64,000 bases of DNA from a plasmid: sequence record NZ_CP095281.1, one strand, 5' to 3'. Made by a program: the position numbers. Below, in pieces: positions 7,200 through 10,100 of the stretch; the stretch's first letter is position 1; each line of letters opens with the position of its first letter.

Positions 7200-10100
7200 T
7201 CAAACGAAGCCGTTTTACTATGTCTGATAATTTATGAATTGGTGGATAAATTTGCTTAGCGTACAGATCCGCCCCATTGGGCTTCAAACCCCACCGACAG
7301 TCGGTGACGTGGCACAGCTCACAATTCAGCCTCATTCAGGGTTCATCAGCTCCATTTGAAGTAATATGTCAGTCCCATAACGGAGGAATGCCATGAGAAA
7401 TGTAGCGCGGAAAGGGGACCCAACAAGCACGGGAGGGGTGATCCAGGATGGTGATGGCGGCTGGCTCACCGAAGGGGCGCCAACAACCTATATCGGGATG
7501 ATAGCGACCTGCCCAGCTTGCAAAGTCGGACAGGGCCCTATCGTCGCCGTCGGCCCCCGTTCCATCATCGGCCCGGGCGGGCCGGTCGCACTGCAGGGCG
7601 ATTATGTCGCTTGCGGCTGTCCGCCGATGAGCAACACCATACTCCCCGCCCAGGGGACGACAGTCGGCGACAACAAAGGGCCCCGGGCGAGAGCAGCCAG
7701 CGCCCCCGCAGAAACACCAGCACCAGCTCCCACCAGTTCGCCGGCGACCCCTCTTGTCCCGCTGATTGACCCCACGGAACATCGGATCGGCATCTTCTTC
7801 GATGGCACCCAGAACAACAGACACAACAGCGAGCTCAGGGCGCTGTGTGAAGAGGCAAGCGAGGTAGCCTGCAAATCCATAGAGAAGCTGATAGGCACTG
7901 AATCCTCATACGACGGCGGCCCAACCAACATTGCCCGGCTGCATCAAGCCTATACCGGCCCAGCAATCTACATCGAGGGGATCGGCACCAGTGCCGGCAA
8001 AGCCGACTCGAATTTAGACATGGCCTTCGGCACCGGCGCAACTGGCGTCATAGCCAGGTCAGAGGAAGGCTTGGCCAAGATCAGCACCATGATCGCCAGC
8101 CTACCCGCCGGCCCGGTATCTGTGGATGTCTTCGGCTTTAGCCGGGGCGCTGCAGCTGCGCGACATTTCGTGAACATCCTTCTGGAATTGAACCTGGGGC
8201 GCCAGGTGCACGTCGCATTCGTTGGCCTCTTCGATACCGTAGCAGCCATAGGCCTGGACGCCAGCAATGACGAGAATGCGCCAGTTCGCCTCTACATTGC
8301 TCCCGGGGCCGCGGAGAAGGTTGTCCAGCTCGCCGCCAAGGACGAGTACCGGCTCAATTTTGCGCTTAACTCCGTACAGCCAGACCACACGGAACTCCCG
8401 CTATTCGGTACTCATAGCGACGTTGGCGGCGGGTATCTAGACCAAGTTGAGAAGACGCCAATCATGCGCCCCTATGATGCCATCCTGAAATTTGGTGATG
8501 ACGCAGCCTATAAGAGATTCCAGGCTGCAGCCAACGCCAGGCTCCAGGAGGAAGCTATCCCCCTATACAAGGGATATGCGAAAGACAGCAGCCAGATAAA
8601 GCCGACCATCAGCTCTTTCTCCGTCGTATCCAAGAGCGACGCGCCAATGGTGGGCTATGTGGCCAACGCGATCATGACGCGCACGGTCAAACCTGAACTG
8701 CAGCTGCTCGCCGGCCACCTTATGCAGACTATCGCGCAGGAAAGCGGAGCTCCGCTCACCCCCCTGTCTGAGCCGGTTCCCGGGGCGCTGGCCTTCTTAT
8801 TCGACCAGTACTTGGGCCTGTGGCATGGAAGCGGTGACCTCAAACTGTCCAAGGAGCAAAACGAGATGCTGATGACGGAGTATGTTCACTGCTCCGATAA
8901 CTGGACGCCGCTCGGCCCCCTCTACGTGAACGCCCCCGCCCCTGGTAGGGTTCGTCGCATCTACCAGCAATCACCAGGGAAGTGACCTTATGAAGCGAAT
9001 AGTCATTGTCCTAGCCCTAGCCCTCCCCCTCGCACTTGCAGCGTGTGGCGATACCCAGGAGAAGAAACAGCCCCGTAAGCCGCCAGAGGAGCGGGTGATC
9101 AGTGAGCCAGCACATGGATTTGGTGTCCTTTTTGGCAAGCCAAACCCCGATTACACACCGCCAGGGAGGCTAGTTGATAGCCCGGACTTTAAAGTGACTC
9201 TCCCAGAGGACCGCTGGGAAGAGGTCAGTATCAGCAAAAAAGAGGGCAAGCCAAGCGCGGCGGCAGGTGTAGATAAGTGAGAGCTCGCTGGGCTGTCACT
9301 CTCCTGGCGACAGTAGGGGTCTTGGCCATAGCCACCCTGTTTTACACCAGGTCAGATCTACCGAAGGAGGAAAGGCCAGGTATCACCCCCTCCAATCATG
9401 GAGTGGGTGTCCTTTTCGGTTCGCCAAAGTACCAGGTAAAAGGGGAGCTCGTGGAGGGAGGCTTTTTGGATAAGCCCGAAGCGCCTCCATCCCAGGCGAC
9501 GCTTGCAAATGATCCCCTCAAGGCACCGAGCCATGGGGTTGCCAGTAAGAGCGAACAAGGCAGCACGAAATAGTGGCATGAAGCGAATAGCGATTGCCCT
9601 ACCCCTTTCCCTCGCACTGGTGGCATGTGGTGATGCCCAGGAGAAGCAGCTGCGCCGTAAGCCGCCGGAGGAGCGGGTGATCAGTGAGCCGGCTCATGGG
9701 TTTGGCGTCCTTTTTGGTAAGCCAGACCCCAATTACACACCACCAGGGAGACCAGTTGATAGCCCGGACTTTAAATTGACGATTCCAGAGAAACGCTGGG
9801 AAAAGATGACCCTCAACCGATATGGAGAAGTTGTACCTAATGAGGGCAAGCCGAGCGAGGCGGTAGGTGTAGATAAGTGAGAGCTAGCGGGGCTGCCGCA
9901 ACATGCCCAGGATAAGGAAGCCCCGGCGAACTGGCCGGGGCTTCACTGTCATATCACCGCATCGACGATACCCCACATTTTTTCCCTATTTCGACAAGAA
10001 AACCCAGCAACGGCGTGGCTTGCATCGCATCGACGACTTCACCCCTTCCCAGCTCGGCGGCGGGCCATAGCTGACTCGCCGGCCAGAATGTCACGGCAGT

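Follow-up and report, generated by a model that had tools for sequence, protein, structure and literature searches.

Several described effector-immunity pairs of type VI secretion systems (T6SS) bear on a cassette of four co-directional plus-strand genes (positions 7393-9880) that we analysed on an Aeromonas plasmid (sequence record NZ_CP095281.1), in a stretch of 64,000 nucleotides (nt) hereafter called the window. The first gene of this cassette encodes a PAAR-fused phospholipase of the Tle1 family, and the three small genes that follow it (genes 1, 2 and 3) encode candidate immunity proteins. The Tle1-Tli1 pair of enteroaggregative Escherichia coli (EAEC; EC042_4534/4535; PDB 6SJL/6SKI) has a homologous hydrolase whose catalytic triad can be aligned with that of the window effector. 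However, EAEC Tle1 is a cargo effector on the C-terminal TTR extension of VgrG1, whereas the window toxin is covalently fused to PAAR, and the window immunity proteins are unrelated to the DUF2931-type Tli1 (212-225 amino acids in relatives), of which they have less than half the size. In addition, the EAEC pair is part of the chromosomal T6SS-1 cluster, whereas the window cassette is located on a conjugative plasmid.

Within the same genus, Aeromonas hydrophila NJ-35 produces Tle1(AH), a DUF2235 phospholipase with a GxSxG motif, which is likewise followed by more than one homologous immunity gene (none to three, depending on the strain; PMC7245790). Tle1(AH) is chromosomally encoded and is delivered by a DUF4123 adaptor and VgrG, whereas the PAAR-fused window effector has no adaptor; its immunity proteins, Tli1 and Tli2(AH), are of the DUF2931 type, both being required (PMC7245790), and thus belong to a different family. 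Chromosomal modules with the same PAAR+PF09994 architecture followed by DUF2931 are present in Stutzerimonas, Halopseudomonas, Pseudomonas and Xanthomonadaceae. Their effectors (605-685 amino acids, with 29-34% of residues identical in alignments that span up to 99% of the query) differ from that of the window in being about 100 residues longer and in having DUF2931 immunity. One of these modules lies inside a T6SS core cluster: in Stutzerimonas stutzeri an approximately 32%-identical PAAR-Tle1 protein is encoded between tssE and tssF, followed by DUF2931, and a second gene of similar identity (approximately 32%), located elsewhere, is also followed by DUF2931.

PAAR-lipase specialised effectors, each with a downstream immunity gene, were validated in A. 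hydrophila AH54 (PAAR1/Tsi3 and PAAR2/Tsi4; PMC12396204). These effectors differ from that of the window in PAAR subtype, their lipase, with the motif GHSLG, was placed in Tle2 by the authors, and they are encoded in chromosomal Aux clusters with vgrG and rhs, unlike the window cassette. We considered whether the window cassette could be equivalent to PAAR1/Tsi3 and rejected it, as the two are not homologous and the similarity at the PAAR level is marginal (E 0.017). Although the two AH54 effector alleles share 94% identity, neither of their immunity proteins, which are 79% identical, protects against the other allele (PMC12396204); this is a functional precedent for allele-specific immunity of the kind proposed for genes 1 and 3. 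Arrays in which a cognate immunity gene is followed by the immunity genes of other alleles were described in Vibrio cholerae and explained by replacement of the effector, or of its C-terminus, the earlier immunity gene being kept (Kirchberger et al. 2017, PMC5361080); the mosaic seen in the window is of exactly this kind. Those arrays belong to chromosomal T6SS auxiliary clusters, whereas the displacement suggested for the window would have taken place on conjugative plasmids, between plasmid lineages. Finally, orphan T6SS islands with spike components and adjacent effector-immunity pairs were reported on plasmids without a full system, with an enrichment on conjugative ones (ISME Commun 2026, PMC13098142); that survey took hcp and/or vgrG, by themselves or together with PAAR, as the defining genes of an island, and lone PAAR-toxin genes are not among the categories that it lists.

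Against this background, we consider it highly probable that the window carries a self-contained plasmid-borne T6SS effector-immunity module, in which gene 1 would encode the cognate antidote and genes 2 and 3 would be orphan immunity genes of other effector alleles.

The effector and the small downstream genes

An earlier note on this stretch had described four open reading frames (ORFs) at these positions, the first of them encoding a PAAR N-terminus, a Pro/Ala linker and a DUF2235 hydrolase with the motif FGFSRGA. All four were recovered by an ORF scan, and the domain composition was corroborated by the translation and by the hidden Markov model searches for PAAR and DUF2235/Tle1 that the note had proposed, both above cut-off (Table 1); the match to Pfam T6SS_Tle1-like_cat (PF09994/DUF2235) extends over two stretches (54 bits for a cut-off of 27, E 2.1e-14). 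The four cysteine residues of the PAAR domain are arranged as CPAC...CGC. The label of cargo effector given in the note was not retained, as fusion to PAAR makes the toxin a specialised effector.

The best solved relative of the effector is PDB 6sjl_D (E 1.7e-32, query residues 182-506), the EAEC Tle1 chain of the VgrG1-Tle1 cryo-EM structure. In the HMMER alignment, Ser250 (GFSRG), Asp281 (LFDTVAAIG) and His341 (THSDVGGGY) of the window effector fall on residues S197, D245 and H310 of 6sjl_D, and residues 197, 245 and 310 are those reportedly identified by Flaugnatti and colleagues, in 2016, as the catalytic triad of EAEC Tle1. The Ser/Asp/His triad is kept in all eight relatives compared. 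The hydrolase domain is also related to Tle1(AH) (28% identity, E 7e-34), an experimentally tested T6SS phospholipase of A. hydrophila (PMC7245790). As for the structural check suggested in the earlier note, the triad stands by alignment to EAEC Tle1, and the AlphaFold2 model of the effector, obtained from a single sequence, was unusable (predicted local distance difference test, pLDDT, 35; predicted template modelling score, pTM, 0.25). The alignments thus point to the effector as a member of the Tle1 family, with a triad supported by alignment and not by geometry. It is a new member of Tle1, already named in databases as a PAAR/DUF2235 domain-containing protein.

We retrieved 1513 homologues of the effector, mostly with the PAAR+PF09994 architecture, and two of them (P0043 and P0073; such handles denote relatives retrieved in our searches) are fused to VgrG C-terminal domains. 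The predicted link of the effector to type VI secretion derives from its PAAR domain and from these relatives. Conservation is unevenly distributed along the protein: residues 1-95 are 91-99% identical across plasmid clades, the linker shows 62-94% identity between relatives, and in residues 351-530 identity falls to 44-46%. In addition, the first approximately 95 residues of P0028 (350 amino acids) are almost exactly the PAAR of the window effector, whereas its C-terminal domain, rich in transmembrane segments and with hydrophobic helices at its end, is unrelated. A constant delivery module joined to a variable toxin corresponds to a polymorphic-toxin pattern, and the PAAR module is reused with other toxins.

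The effector gene starts with ATG, 7 nt downstream of GGAGG, and the small genes lie directly 3' of it, with 4-nt gaps or overlaps; gene 2 starts with GTG and overlaps the stop codon of gene 1 (GTGA). A 125-residue form of gene 3, starting at TTG, is an upstream extension of the 100-residue ATG form. The mutual homology of the three small ORFs, also proposed in the note, was confirmed: genes 1 and 3 share 76% of their residues, gene 2 is 36-39% identical to gene 1, and all three proteins carry the core HG[FV]GVLFG, within a common region of approximately 35 residues (P-x-E-E...H-G-x-G-V-L-F-G-[KS]-P...Y...G).

Two anchoring types can be distinguished, a lipoprotein type (L-type) and a type with an N-terminal hydrophobic anchor (T-type), which are related with tblastn E-values of 1e-5 to 6e-7 and are retrieved together by a single profile. 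Genes 1 and 3 are of the L-type, as the note had proposed, with lipoboxes (MKR...LAAC with Cys19 and MKR...LVAC with Cys17, respectively) of the pattern [LVI][ASTVI][GAS]C, preceded by a basic n-region and a hydrophobic h-region, and NCBIfam lipoprotein models match them at the signal peptides only (residues 1-20/35). These lipoproteins are probably located at the outer membrane, judging from the Gly at position +2. Gene 2, of the T-type, has a 20-residue uncharged hydrophobic segment (residues 5-24) and no Cys, hence no lipobox; it has possible, although unconvincing, AxA sites, so that a signal anchor is suggested and a cleaved Sec signal seems less likely. In either case the conserved part of the protein is predicted to face the periplasm, where Tle1 enzymes act (PMC9860674).

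Apart from the signal peptides, the small proteins are isolated from described families. There was no Pfam match at E<=1, and profile searches of Pfam, NCBIfam, PADLOC, PHROGs and PDB retrieved signal-peptide matches or nothing. No DUF2931-type Tli1 gene is present downstream of the effector in the window cassette, and a kinship of the small proteins with DUF2931/Tli1, the known Tli family against which the note had proposed to compare them, was rejected (hhalign probability 5.8%, over the signal peptide only). Word-indexed searches yielded 18 relatives and, for gene 2, 25. When 1.84 billion representatives were searched exhaustively with a profile, 15 proteins were obtained, all of the same family except P0170. 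The latter, a repeat protein of 3,587 amino acids, was rejected as a homologue, since its repeats (GTSILFGSSG..YTKP) match by composition. The mature small proteins contain 67-73% disorder-promoting residues, and by a charge-hydropathy estimate the products of genes 1 and 3 count as disordered and that of gene 2 as borderline, which weakly suggests that they may be unstructured until bound.

Subtypes, mosaic origin and competing explanations

The subtype of the first downstream gene follows the clade of the effector. Whenever the effector is at least 75% identical to that of the window (A. rivuli, 96%; pAER-f909, 95%; pA-RZ6S-1, 91%; pAsa8, 85%; pAhD4-1, 75%), the first downstream gene is of the L-type, and with effectors 60-64% identical (pAsa5, IncA pRA1 and its enterobacterial relatives, L009 and L025-27) a T-type gene comes first and is usually the only one. 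pAsa8 has a single L-type gene and pAsa5, the IncA plasmids and L009 have a single T-type gene; therefore, one gene suffices in each clade. The sole downstream gene of L009, whose effector is 64% identical to that of the window, is 70% identical to gene 2, and those of pAsa5 and the IncA plasmids are 47% identical to it. The small proteins thus combine the features of an immunity class, being adjacent to the effector, having export signals and belonging to a subtype that tracks the effector clade and the toxin C-terminus. The earlier note had proposed that the middle gene exchanged its lipobox for a transmembrane helix; the hydrophobic anchor without a lipobox was found, but the exchange was not supported, as the comparison indicates an independent and widespread subtype and not a lipoprotein that lost its lipobox.

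Two deviating loci were also observed. In L026, which belongs to the second clade, the order is reversed, a T-type gene being followed by a gene of 60 amino acids that, by its position, is a candidate internally deleted L-type relic (P0138). In L002 (plasmid of A. caviae FIONA 16800, 8013-9583), the effector is frameshifted into three reading frames and annotated as separate PAAR and DUF2235 genes, and the immunity gene is intact; the toxin decayed and the antidote was kept.

Comparison of the window with related plasmids showed a mosaic (Table 1), with a breakpoint inside the effector gene between approximately 7.7 and 8.2 kb. In line with this, the pAsa8 effector is 85% identical to that of the window overall and 73% in the C-terminal region. 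Gene 1 is 97-99% identical to the gene that follows the 95%-identical effector of pAER-f909, and the single immunity gene of pAsa8 matches gene 3 with 98% identity. The simplest explanation would be a homologous recombination inside the effector gene that swapped the C-terminal half of the toxin together with one or more immunity genes and left the resident immunity gene behind. We propose that gene 3 is the retained, now orphan, immunity gene of a displaced pAsa8-type allele, and that gene 2 is likewise an orphan, its subtype being the one that accompanies the other effector clade. Genes 2 and 3 being nearest to the immunities of other alleles, and the breakpoint being located in the effector gene, the cassette has the features of an orphan-immunity array. 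The same three-gene array is present in A. rivuli DSM 22539, with 97% identity, and thus the recombination event is older than the window plasmid. A relic of a T-type gene follows gene 3 (GTGAGAGCTAGCGGGGCTGCCGC, to be compared with GTGAGAGCTCGCTGGGCTGTCAC at 9277) and marks a repeat, prone to recombination, with which every L-type gene ends. Chimeric genes, in which a T-type N-terminal half is fused in frame to an L-type C-terminal half, were observed in L001 (9893-10324) and in P0134, the latter retaining two HGxGVLFG cores and indicating frequent recombination between subtypes. The relic and these T/L chimeras identify the shared gene ends as recombination points.

The earlier note had interpreted the three genes as a tandem expansion. 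On a local and cooperative form of this view, the paralogues arose in place and each of them would counter the present effector, possibly from different membranes. Homology and adjacency of the genes fit this view, as does the maintenance of the whole array in A. rivuli; moreover, protection in A. hydrophila NJ-35 required both Tli1 and Tli2 (PMC7245790), and a phospholipase attacks both periplasm-facing leaflets, so that an outer-membrane lipoprotein and an inner-membrane anchored protein could complement each other. Nevertheless, we regard this explanation as unlikely. Cassettes with a single gene exist in both clades, and gene 2 is truncated or fused in L004, L001 and P0134, with the cassette still kept. 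Gene 3, together with its flank, resembles pAsa8 (97.6-98%) and gene 1 resembles pAER-f909 (99%), which indicates different origins and not an in-place duplication; sliding identity shows that the C-terminal half of the toxin and genes 1 and 2 were replaced and gene 3 retained.

Several observations weigh against a functional effector-immunity module, and some of them would be expected if the cassette were an inert passenger, that is, a decaying or unexpressed relic moved by plasmid backbones and resistance-gene traffic and functionless in most hosts. No T6SS core or structural gene was found in the window (Pfam scan of 10 of the larger ORFs, ORF-size list and annotation of the pAsa8 relative), no vgrG or hcp adjoins any of the close relatives (at least 60% identical) examined, and a compatible VgrG in the host is an assumption. 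A consensus promoter scan gave no convincing sigma-70 promoter directly upstream of the cassette. Many carriers are Enterobacteriaceae, and enterobacterial IncA hosts may have no matching spike, in which case the module could be silent there. Next to the cassette are a Tn3 junction, a truncated blaTEM, insertion sequence (IS) elements and a recombinase fragment, and the effector is a pseudogene in L002 and truncated in pS44-1, CP118944 and CP039627. As to the small proteins, they match no known immunity family, and their role as immunity proteins is suggested by position, export signals and co-variation. Furthermore, the AlphaFold2 model of gene 1 (alignment of 25 family sequences, effective sequence number, Neff, 2.4) has no secondary structure and gives no confident fold (pLDDT 59, pTM 0.16), which would fit a disordered binder and, equally, an uninformative shallow alignment.

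Against the passenger explanation, the effector is intact on about 90 plasmids, with a ratio of non-synonymous to synonymous substitution rates (dN/dS) of 0.08-0.25, and has a strong ribosome-binding site (GGAGG). The corresponding values are 0.10-0.26 for gene 1, 0.17-0.55 for gene 2 and 0.10-0.55 for the three small genes overall; the effector and all three small genes are under purifying selection. The PAAR domain is conserved (91-99%) between clades whose toxin C-termini differ by 55%, and the co-variation of toxin C-terminus and immunity type argues for ongoing selection. We therefore consider a general passenger status improbable, slightly more so than the local expansion, although the cassette may be an inert passenger in some enterobacterial hosts.

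No more probable than the passenger explanation is that the effector is chiefly an anti-eukaryotic virulence factor, acting on fish tissue or amoebae, and that the small genes just stop damage to self and siblings. A homologue is present on pAsa5, the type III secretion virulence plasmid of the fish pathogen A. salmonicida. In vitro, about half (50%) of RAW264.7 macrophages were lysed by EAEC Tle1, and phospholipases of the T6SS were described as trans-kingdom effectors (PMC9860674); in addition, deletion of tle1(AH) lowered virulence in zebrafish (PMC7245790). However, periplasm-directed immunity, immunity arrays and allele displacement are signatures of conflict between bacteria (PMC5361080), and an anti-eukaryotic role, being compatible with an antibacterial one, would possibly be an addition to it and not a replacement. 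Lastly, that the small genes are accessory factors, such as bacteriocin-release-type lysis lipoproteins or secretion adaptors, is very improbable: small lipoproteins encoded downstream of a toxin gene superficially resemble a colicin operon, and no immunity family was matched, but the effector has a PAAR delivery domain and no colicin translocation or receptor domains, the known T6SS adaptors (DUF4123, DUF1795 and DUF2169) are cytoplasmic whereas the small proteins carry export signals, the subtype tracks the variable toxin C-terminus and not the constant delivery domain, and the immunity gene is retained where the effector decays (L002).

Plasmid surroundings and distribution

Table 1. Features of the cassette and its flanks, with the mosaic segments, in window positions.
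Feature	Position	Strand	Basis
Tn3-type res remnant upstream of tnpR	7131..7236	.	Pfam Resolvase, sequence, alignment
Effector gene, PAAR-linker-Tle1-family phospholipase, 530 amino acids	7393..8985	+	ORF scan, Pfam, PDB match, homologues
PAAR domain, residues 7-77	7411..7623	+	Pfam PF05488, 48.1 bits, cut-off 27
Pro/Ala/Thr/Ser-rich linker, residues ~96-129	7678..7779	+	Translation
Tle1-type alpha/beta-hydrolase domain	7780..8982	+	Pfam, PDB and Tle1(AH) matches
Catalytic codons Ser250, Asp281, His341	8140-8142, 8233-8235, 8413-8415	+	Alignment
Immunity candidate 1 (gene 1), 96 amino acids, L-type	8990..9280	+	Lipobox LAAC
Immunity candidate 2 (gene 2), 98 amino acids, N-terminal hydrophobic anchor or uncleaved signal, T-type	9277..9573	+	
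Immunity candidate 3 (gene 3), 100 amino acids from ATG, L-type	9578..9880	+	Lipobox LVAC
Relic of T-type gene 5' end, ~23 nt, directly after gene 3	9877..9900	+	Sequence
Perfect 11-bp GC-rich hairpin, 6-nt loop, without T tract, closing the cassette	9917..9944	.	Sequence, ViennaRNA fold
Tyrosine recombinase C-terminal fragment, 112 amino acids	10039..10377	-	Phage_integrase profile positions 108-167 of 172
Mosaic segment: upstream region, PAAR, linker; ~100% pAsa8	7235-~7700		Sliding identity
Mosaic segment: lipase C-terminal half, gene 1, 5' two-thirds of gene 2; 99-100% pAER-f909, 62-86% pAsa8	~8200-9475		
Mosaic segment: 3' part of gene 2; 90% L009	9377-9554		
Mosaic segment: gene 3 and flank; 97.6% pAsa8	9577-10500		

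The window plasmid is a pAsa8-like Aeromonas plasmid of the MOBF/F-type conjugative class. Of 10 of the larger ORFs, submitted to the Pfam scan, eight matched (TrwC-type relaxase, coupling protein and F-type TraG/H/F/N/TrbC/U) and two had no match. The view of an orphan effector-immunity module on a conjugative plasmid, away from T6SS core genes, was supported. The flanking elements named in the earlier note, a Tn3 res junction and a recombinase fragment, were also identified. On the left, a tnpR gene starts with ATG at 7130 on the minus strand (Pfam Resolvase match for 6573-7199), and a hybrid res site has its crossover at approximately 7232-7236, where Tn3-type res up to TGTCTGATAATTTAT is followed by GAATTGG (joint between TTAT and GAATT). 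We take the left half of this junction to be Tn3 res site I. In pAsa8 and in the A. rivuli contig the left half is a diverged res-like sequence, and identity with the window begins at TTATGAATTGG and runs rightwards, which suggests that the hybrid site was made by site-specific, resolvase-mediated recombination that placed the Tn3 remnant beside the cassette. On the right, the recombinase fragment (Pfam 23.8 bits, under the cut-off of 27.1) is 98% identical to pAsa8 and is part of the pAsa8-type backbone and not of the cassette. The hairpin that closes the cassette was not called as a terminator by a consensus terminator scan.

Other observations concern the wider surroundings. The region 4745-6450 holds a TEM-type beta-lactamase ORF without its 5' end (216 amino acids when read from TTG) and, directly adjoining it, an IS whose transposase is of the rve type (5470-6450, minus strand); the resistance gene appears to be truncated by this IS. 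Genes for psiA, antirestriction and ParB-like proteins are found 8-16 kb from the cassette, with IS insertions between, and we do not claim a leading-region or early-expression role for the cassette. Tandem arrays of approximately 72% GC, with a unit of approximately 187-202 bp, occur at 12490-13693, between the recombinase fragment and traT, and at 49154-50388, just after the relaxase gene, with a solo copy at 10719-10953; spurious ORFs of great length arise from them on either strand, and the A. rivuli contig L019 has these arrays too. At 25248-26444, immediately following the ParB-like gene, a 127-bp unit is repeated in tandem 9.4 times (92% matches); a unit of 99 bp is repeated six times (96%) at 51770-52364, within a TraG-like ORF of 1264 amino acids, where it would correspond to an in-frame repeat of 33 amino acids.

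The cassette is almost entirely plasmid-borne and rarely chromosomal. A tblastn search of PLSDB identified the effector on 129 plasmid records, 91 of them covering at least 80% of its length and 80 being conjugative; 44 carriers are Aeromonas, followed by Escherichia, Citrobacter, Klebsiella, Enterobacter and Salmonella, and pAsa5, pAsa8 and IncA pRA1 are included. The earlier note had suggested a search for the cassette adjacent to vgrG in genomes; a search of 185,579 species-representative genomes located the PAAR module at only two loci, both on small plasmid-like contigs. Among 5,426 complete E. coli genomes the cassette is present in 10, at 11 places, eight plasmid and three chromosomal. 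The chromosomal copies, of the IncA type (99.3% identity), belong to three near-identical strains (H119-H121; E. coli AH02, AH04 and CT01, at approximately 873.4 kb) and presumably derive from integrated plasmid DNA.

Some neighbouring genes recur on other carriers and are absent from the window. On MOBH/IncA-type plasmids the cassette ends a conserved block composed of a 176-residue ORF, a tyrosine recombinase, a helix-turn-helix (HTH) protein, a HipA toxin and a 164-residue ORF, to which a 312-residue ORF is added in some cases. This block, which may be a mobile island (int-HTH-hipA), is located upstream of the effector in L005-L008, L018, L016, L017 and L001, a set that comprises pRA1, Salmonella and Klebsiella contigs, pAhD4-1, pS44-1 and pA-RZ6S-1. 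A hypothetical gene of approximately 122-123 amino acids, conserved on several MOBH plasmids, follows the immunity array (L004:9165-9536, L002:10192-10563, L025:5801-6172 and L016:5003-5371). In A. salmonicida plasmid pA, gmtX, of the gamma-mobile-trio (GMT), is annotated approximately 8 kb downstream of the cassette (L001:17565-18224); GMT elements carry offensive and defensive cargo.

Proposed mechanism and significance

The analysis shows the domains, triad, homology, export signals, purifying selection, mosaic, effector/immunity co-variation and plasmid distribution; T6SS secretion, phospholipase activity, periplasmic toxicity, protection with its specificity and a benefit to the plasmid are what we infer. 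In the mechanism that we propose, the PAAR domain would cap the VgrG trimer of the chromosomal T6SS of the host, and the flexible Pro/Ala linker would hold the Tle1-family phospholipase A domain (Ser250-Asp281-His341), which, once injected into the periplasm of a neighbour, would hydrolyse membrane phospholipids. The small proteins, with about 75-83 mature residues, would be exported to the periplasmic side, where only the product of gene 1, as the cognate antidote, would neutralise effector arriving from sibling cells. Gene 2, of the type paired with the divergent pAsa5/IncA clade, and gene 3, the antidote of the displaced pAsa8-type allele, would either shield against related alleles from rival plasmids or be relics; the array probably widens protection against related effectors from cells with rival plasmids. 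The module would arm its host, and neighbours that are plasmid-free or differently armed would be penalised, to the gain of the plasmid.

One further reading, which we put forward tentatively and consider rather doubtful as a whole, concerns a weapon lineage owned by plasmids and, independently of it, a disordered, tethered antidote peptide. The effector lineage may be confined almost wholly to conjugative plasmids of several backbones (MOBF of the pAsa8 and pAsa5 types, MOBH IncA), borrowing any compatible chromosomal T6SS, and such a weapon may kill plasmid-free segregants and cells with rival plasmid alleles; if so, the orphan immunity genes would be a record of plasmid-versus-plasmid warfare. 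The antidote, in turn, may be an intrinsically disordered membrane-tethered peptide of approximately 75 residues, whose HGxGVLFG core of approximately 35 residues would fold against the lipase at its variable C-terminal half and which may be usable from either membrane by interchange of lipobox and signal anchor.

Neither the immunity family nor its occurrence in two anchoring forms, nor the almost exclusively plasmid-based habitat, appears to have been described in the literature searched, where we found no description of the cassette on pAsa5, pRA1 or IncA plasmids, nor of a T6SS-based plasmid addiction. T6SS effector-immunity pairs are usually studied as chromosomal, and here the PAAR-lipase dart would need only a compatible spike. 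A Tle1 lineage with a much smaller and apparently unstructured immunity family in place of the canonical DUF2931 would offer a compact system for the study of lipase-effector neutralisation, and the clean mosaic, with a constant PAAR, a swapped toxin C-terminus and an old antidote kept, would provide an example of effector displacement between plasmids. These findings extend, and do not overturn, the current understanding of such systems. The carriers are broad-host-range, resistance-carrying conjugative plasmids (IncA, including pRA1, pAsa5 and pAsa8-like), and thus the uptake of an antimicrobial resistance plasmid could also change which members of a community kill which others, and could make the plasmid more stable.

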